Assembly: GCA_964510885.1 (NCBI GenBank)
Contig: CAZEDL010000001.1
Coordinates: 129,310 to 193,309 of the forward strand
Origin: an uncultured Gammaproteobacteria bacterium
GTDB lineage: Bacteria; Patescibacteriota; Patescibacteriia; Magasanikbacterales; GWA2-37-8
Direction: 5' to 3'
Length of the DNA: 64,000 nucleotides
A model generated the notes under the pieces. It was not told where the DNA came from. It worked only from the letters and a program-made list of their open reading frames with translations, and searched no databases. Made by a program: the position numbers and the translations under genes. This document shows, piece by piece, positions 1,119 through 49,417 of the stretch (the first letter of the stretch is position 1; each line of letters begins with the position of its first letter).

Positions 1119-1694
1119 ATGCTCAACAAAAAATACTTCCAAACCGTACGCGAGGAACTACTATCCTACGCCGAAAAACGTCGCGAAGTCATTAAATCCT
1201 CCGGTGATGCTCAGCACCAGGCTAAACGGGCTATTTTTGCCCTGCAGCGCGATGACCGCCCAGAAGCTAAGAAATGCCTCGATACCGCCAGCGAGCTGCT
1301 TATGGGCCTAAATAAGCGCTACCACAAGAGTCCAGAGTTATTCGAAGAAGGGTCTTACCGAGCCTCGCTTGAAGAATATGTCGAAGCTTGGCTATTTCAT
1401 GAATACCTCGAGGGTCGTGATATGGGCCCGGTCAACGGCCTCACCGTCGACCCGGATTTATATGTTAGCGGCCTCGCTGATGTTCCCGGAGAAATGCTGC
1501 GCTATGCCATTAAAGCTGCCACCGAACGCGATTTTATGATGGTAAAAAAATGCTACCAAGCTGCCGAAATGATTGTCAGCGAAATGGTAGATATGGACCT
1601 CACTGGTTATAACCGCCAAAAATTTGACCAAGCCAAACAAGCTCTCAACAAACTCCAACAAGTAGTATACGAAGTGAGCCTCAAAACGTCATAA
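1119..1694 (+). CDS. Hypothetical helical protein, possibly translin-family
   Basis: 191-aa ORF with no competing frame. The motif LEEYVEAWLFHEYLEG and its length and helical character are loosely translin-like. Assignment is tentative. Confidence 0.5.
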   Translation: MLNKKYFQTVREELLSYAEKRREVIKSSGDAQHQAKRAIFALQRDDRPEAKKCLDTASELLMGLNKRYHKSPELFEEGSYRASLEEYVEAWLFHEYLEGRDMGPVNGLTVDPDLYVSGLADVPGEMLRYAIKAATERDFMMVKKCYQAAEMIVSEMVDMDLTGYNRQKFDQAKQALNKLQQVVYEVSLKTS

Positions 1695-8043: not shown

Positions 8044-9342
8044 ATGTCCACTTCCGCCATCCGCTGCCCCCACTGCAAGAACGAAATCGAACTGACCGAA
8101 ACCCTCACCGGGCATATTAAAACCGAGTTGCAAGCCGAATTTGACACCAAGCAGCGCCTCCAGGCCGAACTGGTGGCCAAGAAAGAACAAGCCCTAAAAG
8201 ACGCCCTCGAAAAACTCGATCAGGAGAAAGCCAGTCTAAAAGAAGCGGTGGATGCCAAGGTCAAAACCGAAAAAGAAAAACTCTGGACCGTAGCCCAAGA
8301 AAAAGCCCAGGAAAAGTTTAGCCTCGAACTACAAGATTTAAAACTCCAGAAACAAGAACGCGATCGCCAGCTTGAAGAAGCGCGTAAAAACGAACTCGAG
8401 CTCCGCGCAGCGGCTAGAGAACTAGAGGAAAAAACTAAAAATCTGGATTTAGAATTAGAGCGCAAACTTGATGCTGAACGCAAAAAAGTTGAAGCAAAAT
8501 TGAAAGGTGAACAAACACAGCTTCTCGACGATAAACTCCGTACCATGCAAGAGGAATTCCGCCTGAAAGAGCTAGAAAAAGATAAGCAGATGGAAATTTT
8601 GAAAAAATCCCTTGACGAAGCCCAGCGTAAATCTGCCCAGGCCTCCATGCAAATTCAGGGTGAAGTGCAAGAAGCAGATCTGAAGCGGCTGCTCGAAACC
8701 AATTTCCCGCTAGATATTATCAGCGATGTACCAACTGGTATCAAAGGCGCAGATTTAGTGCAGACTGTAAAAACCCCTTTCGGGCAGGCGTGTGGTATAA
8801 TTCTCTGGGAATCAAAAAATACCAAGCAATGGAGTGCTGACTGGATAAAAAAAATGAAAGGGGATCAAGGCCTCGCTAATGCCGATGTGTGTATTATTGT
8901 GTCCAAAGTCTTACCCGATACCATCTCCACCTTCGGCTGTCTCGACGGTATTTGGGTGCTTGATGCCGCCTATGCCATACCAGTCACAGCAATGCTGCGC
9001 CAACATCTAATGGAATTAAGCCAAGCAAAAAATTCACTAGTCGGTCAGGAAACCAAAAAAGATTACTTATACGAATATATTTCGAGTCCTCAATTCAAGA
9101 ATCGCCTAGAAAATATTATCATGGGCTTTACCAGTCTAAAACAAGATCTCGAAACCGAAAAACGCTCTATGCAACGCATCTGGAGCAAACGGGAAAAAGA
9201 AATCGAACGGGTGATTATGAGTACCAGCGGGCTCTACGGCGATATGCAGGGCATCATCGGGGCCAGCTTACCAAGCGTACCAATCCTTGAGCTAGACGCA
9301 AGTGAACCAGAGCCTGAGGCGGCAAATCTTACTCTTATCTAA
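8044..9342 (+). CDS. DUF2130-like protein: N-terminal CxxC, long coiled coil, C-terminal PD-(D/E)xK-like nuclease domain (RmuC-related)
   Basis: CPHCKNEIEL at the N-terminus. About 170 aa of E/K/L-rich heptads follow. The C-terminal GADLVQTVKTPFGQACGIILWESKNTKQW...VCIIVSKVLP has a D...E-x-K arrangement. Confidence 0.6.
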   Translation: MSTSAIRCPHCKNEIELTETLTGHIKTELQAEFDTKQRLQAELVAKKEQALKDALEKLDQEKASLKEAVDAKVKTEKEKLWTVAQEKAQEKFSLELQDLKLQKQERDRQLEEARKNELELRAAARELEEKTKNLDLELERKLDAERKKVEAKLKGEQTQLLDDKLRTMQEEFRLKELEKDKQMEILKKSLDEAQRKSAQASMQIQGEVQEADLKRLLETNFPLDIISDVPTGIKGADLVQTVKTPFGQACGIILWESKNTKQWSADWIKKMKGDQGLANADVCIIVSKVLPDTISTFGCLDGIWVLDAAYAIPVTAMLRQHLMELSQAKNSLVGQETKKDYLYEYISSPQFKNRLENIIMGFTSLKQDLETEKRSMQRIWSKREKEIERVIMSTSGLYGDMQGIIGASLPSVPILELDASEPEPEAANLTLI

Positions 9343-9358
9343 ATTAACTTTTTGTCAT

Positions 9359-10381
9359 ATGAAAGCGCTGATACTAACAGCACTGACTGCCCTTGGTTTG
9401 GTGACCACACCTGCCAAACCGGTGAAACCAATTACTGAACCGACTAAAACTACTTCACCGACCGCGACTGCCAAGTCAAAAATGCCTGTCAAATCACAGG
9501 TCACAAAAATAAAGCCTGCCACCAAGCCAACGACTGCCAAGAAAACCGTTCCTGGTGTCAAGAAAGCATCTGATTTAAAAGTGCCCGCCTCAAAAATTAT
9601 TGAGATTGCACTTCCACTCCCTAAAAAAAATAAAACCACACCCGCCAAGGACCGCGATATATCCAATCCCGAGCCTTTCACCATGAGTGAAAATGAAATC
9701 TCCAAAAGTCCGCTCACCGTGGCCGGGGTTTTAGCCTTTACTAACGCTGCAAGGCATGATAATGGCGATATTACTGCACTCAAAGGCAATGCTTTATTAA
9801 ATAAAGTAGCAGGCTTACGTCTCAAAGACATGTTTGACAAACAATATTTTGCCCATGTATCGCCAAGCGGTATCGGGCCGTCTGAAATTGCTGGCGATGT
9901 GGGATACGAATATCTAACTCTTGGTGAAAATATTGCCCGCGGCACTTTTGCTGATGATGCAGCTCTTGTAACTGCCTGGATGAACAGCCCGCATCACCGT
10001 GAAAATATCGTTAATCCCAAATATCAAGAACTAGGTATTGCTGTAGGAGAGGGGACATACGAAGGGCACAGCACGTGGCTAGCGGTGCAGGTATTTGGGA
10101 CAGCTGCCAGCGTCTGCCCCGAACCTGACGAAACGCTAAAAACCAGCATCAATGCTGCAAGTGGCGAAGTTAATACTCTAGCTGAATCAGCTGCTAAAAT
10201 TCAAAGTGAATTAGAAAAATTGAGCCCCAAAACATCTCTTGAAATTGAAAACTATAATGTTAAAATTAACGAATACAATGATCTAGCCCAAAAAATCACT
10301 GCTTTAAATGAATCCATAAAACTAAAAATAAAAACCTATAATGGACAGTCAAACAGTTATAATAAATGCATAAACGGTTAA
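9359..10381 (+). CDS. Secreted CAP/SCP/PR-1 domain protein with Pro/Thr/Lys-rich linker and C-terminal coiled region
   Basis: Signal peptide MKALILTALTALGLVTT. CAP motifs AWMNSPHHRENIVNPKYQELGIAVGEG. Start set to the ATG at 9359 rather than the track's 9302, which overlaps the upstream gene. Confidence 0.75.
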   Translation: MKALILTALTALGLVTTPAKPVKPITEPTKTTSPTATAKSKMPVKSQVTKIKPATKPTTAKKTVPGVKKASDLKVPASKIIEIALPLPKKNKTTPAKDRDISNPEPFTMSENEISKSPLTVAGVLAFTNAARHDNGDITALKGNALLNKVAGLRLKDMFDKQYFAHVSPSGIGPSEIAGDVGYEYLTLGENIARGTFADDAALVTAWMNSPHHRENIVNPKYQELGIAVGEGTYEGHSTWLAVQVFGTAASVCPEPDETLKTSINAASGEVNTLAESAAKIQSELEKLSPKTSLEIENYNVKINEYNDLAQKITALNESIKLKIKTYNGQSNSYNKCING

Positions 10382-22924: not shown

Positions 22925-23317
22925 ATGAAAAAAGTACTTGCTTTTGGCACCTTTGACCACTTGCATCCTGGCCATTCATTTTTTTTAGCCGAAGCCAAAA
23001 AACTCGGCGACCACTTAACCGTGGTAGTAGGCCGAGATGTCACCGTTAGCCAAGTAAAACACCACCTGCCAAAACAATCAGAAGTCGAGCGCTTAGCTGC
23101 AGTAGCCAAAGATCCGGCCGTCGATAAAGCTCGGCTCGGGAATACCGGTGAAGATAAATTAAAAGTGATCGAAGAAGAGAAGCCAGATATTATTGCGCTA
23201 GGCTATGATCAAAAAGTATTTGTAGACTTGTTACTTGAGAAATATTCTGGAAAAATTCAAATTTCTTGGATCGAAGCCTTCCAACCGGATATCTACAAAA
23301 GCTCCAAACTAAGGTAA
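22925..23317 (+). CDS. Cytidylyltransferase-like nucleotidyltransferase (RibL/TagD-like)
   Basis: FGTFDHLHPGH (HxGH motif), KPDIIALGYDQ. About 130 aa. Start set to the ATG at 22925. Confidence 0.6.
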   Translation: MKKVLAFGTFDHLHPGHSFFLAEAKKLGDHLTVVVGRDVTVSQVKHHLPKQSEVERLAAVAKDPAVDKARLGNTGEDKLKVIEEEKPDIIALGYDQKVFVDLLLEKYSGKIQISWIEAFQPDIYKSSKLR

Positions 23318-23319
23318 CT

Positions 23320-24372
23320 ATGAAGACGCCTGCCCCGCTCAAAATTTTAATCGCCACTTCGAACCCCGGAAAATTTCAGGAATTTATCTTAGAATTTGCT
23401 GATTTACCTTTTACATTTGTAAATCTCACGGACTGCGGTCTTGGCAACCTTGACGTTGACGAACCCTACGACACCACCGAACAAAACGCCATTCACAAAG
23501 CTAAAATCTATGGACAAAAGAGCGGCCTCTTAACTATTGCCGAAGATAGCGGTTTATTTGTACGAGCACTGCAAGGTGCCCCCGGCGTCCATTCAAAACG
23601 CTACGCACCCACCGCTCCCGAACGAGTCAAAAAACTCTTGGCCGCTCTAACCGGAGTGCCGACCAAACACCGCTCAGCTTCATTTGAAAGTTCAAGCTGC
23701 CTGTATAATCCAACTACTCATTCATACACCGTATTTTCGGGTCAAACCCACGGCCACATCACTGAGCGCACCAGCCGTATTCCTGCCCGCCCCGGGCTCG
23801 AATACGACAGTGTTTTTTACTATGAGGCCGCTAAAAAAATCGGCACCGCAATTTCGCCCGCTGAAAAAAATCTGATTAGTCATCGAGGCCAACTAGCCAT
23901 CCAGCTCAAAATTTACCTAACGCGCCAACTGTCTTTCAAACAGATAATTGTGCCCGCCGCGCTGGTGGTAAAAGATCGTAAATTATTTTGCAACAAACGC
24001 CGCGACCACCGCCCTCACATGAATAATAAGTGGGAATTTCCAGGTGGGGGAATAGATAATGGCGAAGATCCAGTTGAGTGTGTAAAACGAGAAATAAAAG
24101 AAGAGACGGGATATACCGTAGAACCAATCGAAATGATTCCGCACATGCTCTCAACCGTTGCAAAAGGGGCCAGCCAAGAGCCATACCAAGTATTCATCTT
24201 CTGTTATATCTGCAAAATAACGGGGGGCAGTCTCAAAGTCCCTGCCGGAGAATCTAACGGACACGGATGGTTCACTCTTGCAGAAGCTAAAAAGCTGGAT
24301 TTTCTAGCTTTAAACAAGCAACTGTTCCGTCTCAAGCACACTCTCGCTATCATTAAAAAATATATTGATTAA
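23320..24372 (+). CDS. Fusion of RdgB/HAM1 non-canonical purine NTP pyrophosphatase (ITPase) and a NUDIX hydrolase
   Basis: N-terminal ILIATSNPGKFQEF...IAEDSGLFVRALQGAPGVHSKRY...ISHRGQ follows E. coli RdgB throughout. C-terminal Nudix box WEFPGGGIDNGEDPVECVKREIKEETGY. Confidence 0.75.
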   Translation: MKTPAPLKILIATSNPGKFQEFILEFADLPFTFVNLTDCGLGNLDVDEPYDTTEQNAIHKAKIYGQKSGLLTIAEDSGLFVRALQGAPGVHSKRYAPTAPERVKKLLAALTGVPTKHRSASFESSSCLYNPTTHSYTVFSGQTHGHITERTSRIPARPGLEYDSVFYYEAAKKIGTAISPAEKNLISHRGQLAIQLKIYLTRQLSFKQIIVPAALVVKDRKLFCNKRRDHRPHMNNKWEFPGGGIDNGEDPVECVKREIKEETGYTVEPIEMIPHMLSTVAKGASQEPYQVFIFCYICKITGGSLKVPAGESNGHGWFTLAEAKKLDFLALNKQLFRLKHTLAIIKKYID

Positions 24373-40049: not shown

Positions 40050-40604
40050 TTATTTAAAAGGTATTTCCTGCACCACGGTATAGTGCGCTCCCGCTCGGGC
40101 AAGTTCGCTTCGCAAAATAGCAATCTTGCCCACCTTCCATTCGAGTGGCCTGACGGCATCATTTGGGAACACGAACGGCTCCGGATGCGTGCAAGGCTTA
40201 ACTCGTCCCAGGGTAATATGCGGTTGCCAAGGCAACTCCGGCATCTTAAACCCAAGCGCGGCGAGAGCGTGATTCAAGAGGGCTTCTAATTCCCGGGCAC
40301 GATACTCGACTTCTTCTGCCCGCATGAAGACTGTGCGAGGATCAGCCACGGTTCCAAAAATTCCCAGTTCGCCAAGTTTCATCTCAAATGGCCTGATTTG
40401 GCTTGCTACACTAGCCACTGTCACTTTCAGGGTTTCAAGCTCGGCAGATTCAATCTCACCCAAAAAATGCAGAGTAATATGAAAGTTAGCTCCCGACACC
40501 CAATTAATCGGTACATCAGGATTAGCTAAGGCCGCTTTTTGAGCGACTTCTGACAGATATTGTTGTACCAGTGGAGGTACTGGCAAAGCCGTAAAAATAC
40601 GCAT
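40050..40604 (-). CDS. thpR: RNA 2',3'-cyclic phosphodiesterase ThpR/LigT (2H phosphoesterase)
   Basis: Two H-x-T-x motifs (HITLHFLG and HITLGRV) in a 184-aa protein. Confidence 0.75.
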   Translation of the reverse strand: MRIFTALPVPPLVQQYLSEVAQKAALANPDVPINWVSGANFHITLHFLGEIESAELETLKVTVASVASQIRPFEMKLGELGIFGTVADPRTVFMRAEEVEYRARELEALLNHALAALGFKMPELPWQPHITLGRVKPCTHPEPFVFPNDAVRPLEWKVGKIAILRSELARAGAHYTVVQEIPFK

Positions 40605-40627
40605 AACAAAGCCAGTATATCACCTAT

Positions 40628-40656
40628 TTGACAAATTGTTCAACCCTCGATATACT
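40628..40656 (+). promoter_or_regulatory. Sigma70 promoter of clpB
   Basis: TTGACA (40628-33), a 17-nt spacer, then TATACT (40651-56). Confidence 0.6.
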
Positions 40657-40660
40657 GATT

Positions 40661-40687
40661 TTATCACTCTAATATATAGAGTGATAA
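40661..40687 (+). promoter_or_regulatory. CIRCE-like inverted repeat (HrcA-type operator) overlapping the clpB transcription start
   Basis: TTATCACTC-N9-GAGTGATAA versus the CIRCE consensus TTAGCACTC-N9-GAGTGCTAA. Both arms are 8/9, the 9-nt spacer is exact, and the arms are perfectly complementary to each other. Confidence 0.55.
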
Positions 40688-40700
40688 ATATTCTTACCCT

Positions 40701-43334
40701 ATGAATTTAGAGAAATTTACTACCAAATCAGTGGAAGCGCTTCACGCGGCCGGCAGAATCGCTCGGGAAAATGGCCAGGCTCATATTGACCCACCTCATT
40801 TATTTTTAGCCTTTCTATTAGATCCGGAGAGTATCGTAATTTCGATCTTAGCCAAGGCGAATGTAAATTTGCAGAACGCTATTTACCAAATGAAAGTTTT
40901 AATCAGTCACTTGCCGAAACAAGGCGATATTAATTCGTATCCAAGCGGGCAAATAATCCTTGACTCGCCATTGGTAGCGTTATTGGAACAATCAGTCGCT
41001 GAAGCTAGAGACATGAACAGCGAATATGTAAGTGTAGAGCATATCTTATTGGCTTTTTTTGTTGATAAAAATGATGTCAGTAACGCTTTTAGCGTTGAAA
41101 ATGTTACCTTTGGGGTGATACAAAAAATTCTTGTAGAAATGAAGGGCTCTTCAGAATTCACGGACTCATTTTCGGGTGAAAAAAAATATGCCATGCTTGA
41201 AAAATTCGGCAAAAACCTGACGGAACTCGCGCGCAAAGAAAAAATTGATCCGGTGATTGGCCGCGATGACGAAATCCGACGGGTAATGCAGATTCTGAGC
41301 CGGCGGACCAAAAATAACCCGGTTCTGATCGGCGAACCAGGTACCGGTAAAACGGCTGTAGTGGAAGGGTTGGCCCAGCGTATTGTAAATGGTGACGTCC
41401 CAGAATCGCTTAAGAATAAAGACATTTTCGCGCTTGATATTGGTTCGCTGGTAGCCGGCACTAAATTTCGTGGCGAGTTTGAAGATCGGCTAAAAGGTAT
41501 TTTAAAAGAAATTTATGGAGCCGAAGGTAAAATTATCTTGTTTATCGACGAACTTCATACGATTGTGGGAGCCGGATCAACTGAAGGCTCGGTTGACACT
41601 TCCAATATGTTGAAACCAGCACTCGCCCGCGGTGAGCTCCATACCATTGGTGCCACTACCCTCAAAGAATATCAAAAATATATTGAAAAAGATGCGGCTC
41701 TCGAACGCCGTTTTCAACCAGTTATTATTAACGAACCTACCGAAGATGATACGGTCGCGATCTTGCGCGGTATCAAAGAAAAATATGAAGTCCATCATGG
41801 GGTACGCATTACTGATAATGCCCTGGTTAGTGCAGTAAAACTCTCCGAACGCTATATTACCGATCGCTTTTTACCAGACAAAGCCGTTGACCTCATCGAT
41901 GAAGCCGCCTCGGCCCTACGCCTCCAGATGGATTCGATGCCGGAAGAACTGGACAAGATGAAACGTTCGATCGTGAAACTTGAAATTGAGAAACGCGCCT
42001 TGCATAACGAGACCGATACTGAATCAAAAGAACGCTTAGCCAAAGTAGAAAGAGAACTGGCAGACATTCATGAACGTAGTAACGAATTTGAAGCTAAATG
42101 GAAAAATGAAAAAGAAATTATTACGCGCATTCAGGATTTTAAAAAAGAAATCGACCAACTTCGCCAACAATCTGAAATTGAAGAGCGGCAAGGTAATTTA
42201 CAAAAAGTTGCCGAAATTCGCTATGGCGCTATCCCCACTTTGGAAAAATCTATTCAAAAAGATGAAAAAAAACTGGCCGAACTGCAACAAAGCCGGGGCT
42301 TATTAAAAGAAGAAGTGAGCGAAGAGGATGTCGCCGGGGTCGTCGCGCGCTGGACCGGTATTCCCGTTAAAAAAATGCTTCAAAGCGAGATGGGTAAACT
42401 GGCCCACATGGAAGAAGTCTTAAAACAAAAAGTTATCGGCCAAGACGAAGCTATTAGGGCAGTGGCTAATGCTATCCGCCGCTCACGCGCGGGAATTTCG
42501 GAAAAAAATCGCCCCATTGGATCGTTTATCTTTATGGGTCCCACGGGAGTTGGTAAAACTGAACTGGCTAAGACGCTGGCGGAATTTATGTTTGATACCG
42601 AAGAAGCCTTAGTCCGTTTGGATATGAGCGAATACATGGAAAAACATAGCGTATCTAAAATTATCGGCTCACCACCTGGTTATATCGGCTATGAAGAAGG
42701 CGGCCAACTTACCGAAATCGTGCGTCGCCGTCCGTATGCCGTCATTCTCCTCGATGAAATCGAAAAAGCGCATCCCGATGTATTTAATTTACTACTCCAA
42801 GTACTTGATGATGGCCGGGTAACGGATGCCAAAGGACGCCTGGTTAATTTCAAAAATACCGTTATTATCATGACCAGTAATATTGGCAGTCGCACCATCT
42901 TGGAATTCAAAAAACGAGGCAGTTTTGGGTTTGAACAGGACCACAGTCAAAAGAAAAAAGATGAACGAGAGATTAAAGAAAAAGTTATGGCTGCTCTACA
43001 GGATCATTTTAAGCCCGAATTTTTAAACCGGTTAGATGAAATTATTATTTTCCATTCTCTTGGCGAAGCCAATATTGAACGAATTGTCGACTTACAATTG
43101 GCCGCAGTGCAAACACGATTAAATGAGAAAAAAATAATACTCTCTCTGGACGCTTCTGCTAAAAAATATATTGCTCAAACCGGCTTTAACAGCGATTATG
43201 GCGCTCGCCCAATCAAACGCCTGATCCAACAGGAAATTCTTGACAATCTAGCCATAAAAATCATTGACGGTACTATTACAGAAGGGCAAACCGTGAGCGT
43301 CAGCCTCGAAAAAGATACACTAAAAATAGTCTAA
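40701..43334 (+). CDS. clpB: ATP-dependent disaggregase ClpB
   Basis: Clp-N repeats, AAA-1 (GEPGTGKTA), coiled-coil M-domain, AAA-2 (GPTGVGKTE) and the sensor-2 GARPIKR. Confidence 0.9.
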
Positions 43335-49036: not shown

Positions 49037-49417
49037 ATGTTTAAGCGCATCCATCACGTCGCGATAATTTGCCAAGACTACGATCGGTCAAAACATTTTT
49101 ATTGCACTATTTTGGGTGCAAAAATACTTCAAGAAAATTACCGTGCTGACCGCAGATCCTACAAGCTTGATTTAATGTTAGCTGACTGCCAAATCGAACT
49201 ATTCTCTTTTCCAAACCCTCCTAAACGCCTCAACAATCCTGAAGCTGCTGGACTTAGACATTTAGCATTTACCGTTGATTCAGTCACTACTGTCAAACAT
49301 ATCCTTGAAGCGTCAAATATTTCCGTTGAACCAATCAGAACCGACCCATATACGCGCAAAAAATTTACTTTTTTCAAAGATCCGGATGGCTTACCTCTCG
49401 AAATATATGAAAGTTAA
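49037..49417 (+). CDS. VOC/glyoxalase-family protein
   Basis: MFKRIHHVAIICQDYDRSKHFY...LGA plus a C-terminal beta-alpha-beta-beta-beta unit (PDGLPLEIYE). Confidence 0.7.
   Translation: MFKRIHHVAIICQDYDRSKHFYCTILGAKILQENYRADRRSYKLDLMLADCQIELFSFPNPPKRLNNPEAAGLRHLAFTVDSVTTVKHILEASNISVEPIRTDPYTRKKFTFFKDPDGLPLEIYES

Follow-up and report, generated by a model that had tools for sequence, protein, structure and literature searches.

The 27-bp palindrome that separates the promoter of clpB from its start codon in the window (the whole 64,000-nt stretch of DNA analysed here) is highly likely to be an operator of the repressor HrcA. It represents a variant of CIRCE specific to the lineage, in which the G at position 4 of both arms has given way to T. 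The CIRCE-like nature of the site had been proposed in an initial annotation, and the proposal is now supported by copies of the palindrome in front of other genes of a heat-shock regulon and by its conservation upstream of clpB in relatives. Judged from the sequences compared, operators of this lineage regularly have the G-to-T change, which is not the mark of a degenerate site.

Promoter and operator of clpB

A promoter TTGACA-17-TATACT followed 4 nt further on by the palindrome had been described for positions 40628-40687, and every element was found in its place (Table 1); the promoter is a strong one of the sigma-70 type, and the four intervening nucleotides are GATT. The palindrome is perfect, with 9+9 complementary bases around a 9-nt spacer, and agrees with CIRCE (TTAGCACTC-N9-GAGTGCTAA) at 16 of 18 bases, the two mismatches being the one symmetric G-to-T change per arm already noted in the initial annotation. 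The operator had also been said to overlap the predicted transcription start of clpB, and the start expected from the promoter geometry does fall in the left arm. The clpB start codon follows 13 nt downstream of the operator end, and the encoded protein is 100% identical to P0001. Only one copy of the palindrome is present in the window, against 0.02 expected from shuffled sequences. A site at 49391 with three mismatches to the motif lies within the formyltransferase gene and was taken as a chance match.

Table 1. Coordinates of the clpB promoter, the putative operator and the adjoining genes in the window
Feature	Position	Strand	Remarks
-35 hexamer TTGACA, clpB promoter	40628..40633	+	Part of the conserved block ATTTGACAA; no variation between the window and the six aligned relatives
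-10 hexamer TATACT	40651..40656	+	17-nt spacer from -35; 11/12 consensus matches; TATA invariant in the alignment
Operator left arm TTATCACTC	40661..40669	.	CIRCE left arm with T for G at position 4
Operator 9-nt spacer TAATATATA	40670..40678	.	Length kept, sequence variable among relatives
Operator right arm GAGTGATAA	40679..40687	.	Invariant in clpB and hrcA relatives
Putative transcription start, inside left arm	40663..40664	+	Expected from promoter geometry, about 7 nt past -10
clpB, 877 aa, ATG at 40701	40701..43334	+	Pfam Clp_N, AAA, AAA_lid_9, AAA_2, ClpB_D2-small
LigT-type 2'-5' RNA ligase, divergent, upstream of clpB	40050-40604	-	Pfam

On the minus strand, a promoter-like sequence at 40614-40643 (TTGAAC-18-TATACT, 9/12 matches) is suitably placed for the divergent ligT-wecG gene string. 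It overlaps the -35 region of clpB and has the operator on its upstream side.

The rest of the window carries housekeeping genes, which include those for a Mur ligase, DivIC, FtsEX, MreBC, PBP2, GreA, several aminoacyl-tRNA synthetases, MscL, Alr, Def, Fmt and glycosyltransferases. Searches by tblastn with HrcA, GroES, Hsp20, ClpP and DnaK queries from related loci detected none of these genes in the 64 kb, in agreement with the earlier observation that hrcA is missing from the window; weak matches of the DnaK query at 16.0-16.9 kb correspond to MreB. The Rfam scan of the window returned four tRNAs only. A 191-aa protein encoded at 1119-1694 (+) gives a match to Translin (PF01997, E 1e-17), a family known mainly from eukaryotes and archaea, and an open reading frame at 23266-24372 (+) fuses two domains that sanitise nucleotides, one Ham1-like (ITPase) and the other NUDIX.

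Distribution of the variant palindrome

An exact-match scan for the 18 specified bases covered 185,579 species (596 Gb), each represented by a single genome, and yielded at least 119 loci with the T-variant (L001-L119). In 108 of the at least 119 loci listed, the site lies no more than 300 bp upstream of a heat-shock gene. When the loci were classified by the gene encountered first, on one strand or the other, over the 300 bp downstream, the matches listed comprised 48 loci with groES, 26 with clpB, 23 with an hrcA-like gene, five with hsp20, four with dnaK, two with clpP and 11 with none of these; this classification by reference sequences is a sorting device, checked with Pfam on representatives (HrcA PF01628, HSP20) and against the ClpB of the window. 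Of the 11 loci left unassigned, L030, L059 and L080 resemble further hsp20 loci, as Pfam confirmed for L059. The gene for GroEL comes after groES in 45 of the 48 groES loci.

The search for the same palindrome in front of groESL and dnaK, which the initial annotation had suggested for the genome of the window, was successful in related genomes (groES 48 and dnaK 4 among the matches listed). Its remark that these two are the usual targets of CIRCE calls for a correction here: clpB is by no means unusual in this lineage, being the second most frequent gene among the matches listed. In nine assemblies, again among the matches listed, two heat-shock operons carry the site, for instance clpB and hrcA in CAZHYG01 and hrcA and groES in LBTN01. 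The hrcA gene itself is preceded by the site at 25 loci in all, 23 of them listed in the scan and two found independently; such a position directly in front of hrcA is what is expected of autoregulation. Tandem operators were observed before an hsp20-like gene in L077 (5514-5540 and 5575-5601) and in L015 (947-973 and 979-1005), the second operator of L077 being a hybrid of a T-type left arm and the canonical right arm GAGTGCTAA.

Patescibacteria account for most of the listed copies. According to the record titles, 56 of the listed loci belong to Patescibacteria lineages, among them Magasanikbacteria, Peribacteria, Saccharibacteria, Peregrinibacteria and Nomurabacteria, and 26 are labelled 'uncultured Gammaproteobacteria' (e.g. 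L001, L007, L010, L012, L014, L018 and L027). One record with the latter title, CAZHYG01, encodes an HrcA that shares 80% identity with proteins under the name Magasanikbacteria. This label and the Udaeobacter label of L004 are probably wrong: those compared have a ClpB or HrcA that closely matches Magasanikbacteria-type proteins. A further 11 listed loci are Rhodobacteraceae or Rhodobacterales, ten of them with the site before groES (L002, L052, L055, L057, L086, L101, L104, L107, L111 and L113) and one, the truncated locus L075, unclassified. Seven are Salinibacter or Salinivenus, for example L011, L023, L049, L112 and L114 before groES, and seven are of Firmicutes type, mostly Peptoniphilaceae before groES (L041, L068, L079 and L106 in the Peptoniphilaceae/Helcococcus group). 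The T-variant before groES in Rhodobacteraceae, Salinibacter/Salinivenus and Peptoniphilaceae indicates that lineages without close relationship have acquired the G-to-T change or tolerate it.

Because the loci of the scan had been selected by the motif, relatives were also taken by protein similarity alone. The full-length ClpB proteins listed, from Magasanikbacteria and other Patescibacteria, are 65-74% identical to that of the window. The six nearest relatives looked up (L200-L205, 70-74% identity) have the gene order of the window, Ddl-M23 peptidase-GltX-(Band7)-WecG // ClpB-PBP-LigB-PriA, and all six carry both arms, TTATCACTC and GAGTGATAA, exactly conserved upstream of clpB, as the initial annotation would have it. 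From the ClpB similarities and the shared gene order, the window comes from a Patescibacteria (CPR) genome with Magasanikbacteria as its relatives. Their N9 spacers all differ in sequence (TAGTATAGC, TAGTATATC, TCTTATATA, AATATACTA, TGTTGATGA and ATATATCAA) and keep the length of 9. In the alignment of the window with the six relatives, the invariant elements are ATTTGACAA at -35, TATA at -10 and the two arms; the spacer, the flanks and the stretch up to the start codon vary. In the nearest relative, L200 (ClpB 74% identical), an open reading frame of 238 aa with no Pfam match (9265-9981) is located between the operator and clpB, and the operator thus heads a two-gene unit.

An independent query with the HrcA protein led to two hrcA loci (L206 and L207), and both have the exact T-variant, with hrcA as the first gene of an hrcA-grpE-hsp20-dnaK-dnaJ operon. 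The gene that follows hrcA in these loci (L206 10691-11557 and L207 10800-11708) encodes a protein of 288-302 aa with NUDIX and GrpE Pfam domains, which looks like a NUDIX-GrpE fusion within the hrcA-hsp20-dnaK-dnaJ operon.

No G-type CIRCE was detected in L001-L119 at up to two mismatches or in L200-L207 at up to three. In the metagenome background of more distant ClpB loci (50-64% identity), by contrast, the G-type was found in 6 of 67 and the T-type in none of the 67. Set against a distant background with the G-type alone, the lack of the G-type in these loci marks the T-variant as the operator that the lineage regularly uses. For five HrcA matches, the longest contig has the same size as a contig that bears ClpB (963,177, 593,082, 512,367, 393,751 and 233,864 bp). 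The ClpB is 66-67% identical to that of the window in four of these pairs, and the fifth, of 233,864 bp, is the one behind locus L004. The equal sizes suggest that hrcA and clpB reside on one contig in these five related cases.

The short HrcA of the relatives

The HrcA proteins encoded beside these operators are short. Genomes of Magasanikbacteria type have HrcAs of 225-231 aa (about 226), while those of Saccharibacteria, Harrisonbacteria and Minisyncoccia measure 237-252 aa. Characterised HrcAs have about 340 aa, and the Thermotoga HrcA chain 1STZ, to our knowledge the only solved HrcA, has 338. Examples of the short form are found in L027, where hrcA starts 48 nt from the site, L063, L066 and L206 (10001-10687), and among the proteins P0129-P0248; their NCBI names are often 'hypothetical' or 'winged-helix domain-containing'.

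The proteins of about 226 aa are HrcA according to Pfam PF01628 (HrcA_C), which is matched only from profile position ~75-106 on, that is, over its last half. At the sequence level, the similarity to 1STZ is confined to the winged helix (residues 16-91, E 2e-17), which is well conserved. An AlphaFold model of the short HrcA (pLDDT 92.4) consists of the winged helix and one alpha/beta domain, and its top match in Foldseek is Thermotoga HrcA 1STZ (E 7e-14), with a TM-score of 0.78 when normalised to the query and 0.56 when normalised to the target; the alignment takes up 325 columns, against 226 residues in the query. Taken together, the protein lengths, the partial Pfam profile and the span of the Foldseek alignment leave about 100 residues of 1STZ with no counterpart; this segment is probably the inserted dimerising domain. 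Compared with the canonical three-domain HrcA (winged helix, GAF-like domain and inserted dimerising domain), the HrcA of the relatives appears to be devoid of the insert of about 100 aa.

It is tempting to go further and to propose that Patescibacteria run their whole protein-damage response, by which we mean groESL, hrcA-grpE-hsp20-dnaK-dnaJ, clpB and clpP, through a minimal, insert-less HrcA that has co-evolved with the T-shifted operator, with altered dimerisation, DNA recognition and perhaps stress sensing. We offer this proposal tentatively and consider it rather unlikely. If it were true, the minimal HrcA and the T-operator would constitute a distinct subtype of HrcA/CIRCE and not a neutral sequence variant.

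Mode of action, alternatives and known systems

Three layouts of promoter and operator were distinguished. A promoter TTGACA-16/17-TATACT/TATAGT stands 1-4 nt ahead of the operator in 13 of the 26 listed clpB loci, and in the Magasanikbacteria-type clpB loci the operator begins 1-4 nt past the -10 box. Among the hrcA promoters with a good match, the -10 box overlaps the operator by 2 nt in 13 of 15. Many loci of Saccharibacteria, Peribacteria and others have TTGAC(A) within the N9 spacer (among them L005, L042, L044, L045, L067, L092, L094, L095 and L100), and here the -35 box appears to be enclosed in the operator, unlike in the window. Repression by promoter occlusion would fit each of the three layouts. 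In the window, the operator begins 4 nt past the -10 box and the left arm consequently takes in the expected transcription start, so that the polymerase would be occluded by a bound repressor.

By analogy with HrcA systems that have been characterised, the switch could operate as follows. In the unstressed cell, a dimer of HrcA on both arms would block RNA polymerase at clpB, and GroEL/GroES would keep HrcA active. Unfolded proteins would titrate GroEL, whereupon HrcA would become inactive and the clpB promoter would open; the ClpB disaggregase would then be made along with GroESL, the products of the hrcA-grpE-hsp20-dnaK-dnaJ operon and the small heat-shock proteins. The GroEL-titration model of HrcA goes back to Mogk et al. 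1997 (cited in PMC7737663). For the genome of the window, we infer that hrcA is present, that HrcA binds and represses, and that GroEL is titrated. The HrcA of the relatives appears to have no dimerising insert, and the scheme accordingly assumes how it dimerises and that it depends on GroEL.

A palindrome at the very beginning of a transcript could also act mainly as RNA, either as a hairpin in the 5'-UTR that governs the stability or translation of the clpB mRNA or as a weak attenuator or terminator. A transcript starting at ~40663 does fold into a 9-bp hairpin (-10.5 kcal/mol, z = -4.4), and a consensus scan flags a terminator-like region in which the stem is followed by TATTCTTACC. However, palindromic operators all fold when transcribed, and the hairpin is therefore not independent evidence; its stem has only three G-C pairs and the T-run is poor. 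The Rfam scan gave nothing credible at the operator site (best E = 0.51, to a snoRNA model), and no family is matched. Furthermore, the arms are identical in sequence in all eight independently found relatives, with no compensatory pair changes seen, which argues for base-specific recognition rather than mere pairing. The layouts in which the palindrome overlaps the -10 box or encloses the -35 box, and is mostly or wholly untranscribed, are hard to square with a purely RNA-level role. We consider such a role improbable as the main function of the site; CIRCE of Bacillus subtilis has been reported to affect mRNA half-life as well, and a secondary role of this kind is possible.

Recognition of the site by a different repressor whose operator resembles CIRCE is very improbable. 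In its favour, HrcA binding is predicted here for a site in which the G at position 4 is replaced, and a change of partner is conceivable for the structurally reduced HrcA of the relatives. Yet the set of targets is that of the classical HrcA regulon, hrcA itself included at 25 loci, the 9-N9-9 geometry and 16 of the 18 bases are those of CIRCE, and the winged-helix region is well conserved with respect to Thermotoga HrcA. In Rhodobacteraceae, Salinibacter/Salinivenus and Peptoniphilaceae, moreover, the T-variant occupies the normal place of CIRCE before groES. Neither of the two other operators that we looked for, the CtsR heptad repeat (RGTCAAA-NAN-RGTCAAA) and the HspR element HAIR (CTTGAGT-N7-ACTCAAG), is present in the clpB upstream region, and their counts across the window are at chance level.

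A functionless palindrome, thrown up by chance in AT-rich DNA between genes, is a negligible prospect: by our own estimate some 10-20 exact copies are expected in 596 Gb, much like the 11 listed loci with no heat-shock gene, but a chance origin of the copy in the window is contradicted by its conservation at the same place in 6/6 relatives with the same gene order, by the expectation of 0.02 copies and by the heat-shock genes that adjoin 108 of the at least 119 copies listed.

Literature searches with the motif string returned unrelated primer matches only, those combining HrcA with Patescibacteria only an unrelated study of oral microbiota, and those on gene regulation in these Patescibacteria genomes nothing. 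An operator of HrcA gives the clpB upstream region a concrete regulatory role and brings clpB into the HrcA heat-shock regulon of an uncultivated lineage related to Magasanikbacteria, and TTATCACTC-N9-GAGTGATAA can serve as a simple searchable signature for stress-regulated genes in Patescibacteria genomes. The reduced HrcA could reveal what the repressor can do without and is the aspect most worth following.

The operator of the window shares with CIRCE of Bacillus subtilis and many other bacteria the inverted 9-bp arms, the 9-bp spacer, 8/9 bases per arm and the position at the promoter and transcription start of a chaperone gene; in the relatives, the T-variant likewise precedes groESL and the hrcA-grpE-dnaK-dnaJ operon, hrcA included. 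It differs from CIRCE in that the regular form of the lineage has T for G at position 4 and, correspondingly, A for C in the right arm. In comparison with the B. subtilis-type system, the T-variant regulon is wider, taking in clpB, hsp20 and clpP, and the repressor of the relatives is shorter (~226 against ~340 aa). With Thermotoga maritima HrcA (1STZ), the HrcA of the relatives has the winged helix in common and differs by the absence of ~100 residues.

The closest parallel for control of clpB is offered by the Mollicutes. In Spiroplasma, M. gallisepticum and M. pneumoniae, clpB is under HrcA/CIRCE, the HrcA regulon of M. pneumoniae, M. gallisepticum and Spiroplasma melliferum comprising clpB, dnaK, groESL and lon (PMC5138195, PMC7737663), and a CIRCE site is regarded as functional there with as many as two changes (PMC5138195). 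These too are genome-reduced bacteria in which one repressor presides over most of the protein quality-control genes; they belong to a different phylum, and the targets seen in Patescibacteria do not include lon and have clpP and hsp20 instead. With clpB already known as an HrcA target in Mollicutes, the site of the window adds a member to a known kind of control and leaves the general understanding of HrcA/CIRCE unchanged. It is very probably a new example of the known HrcA/CIRCE switch in the little-studied Patescibacteria.
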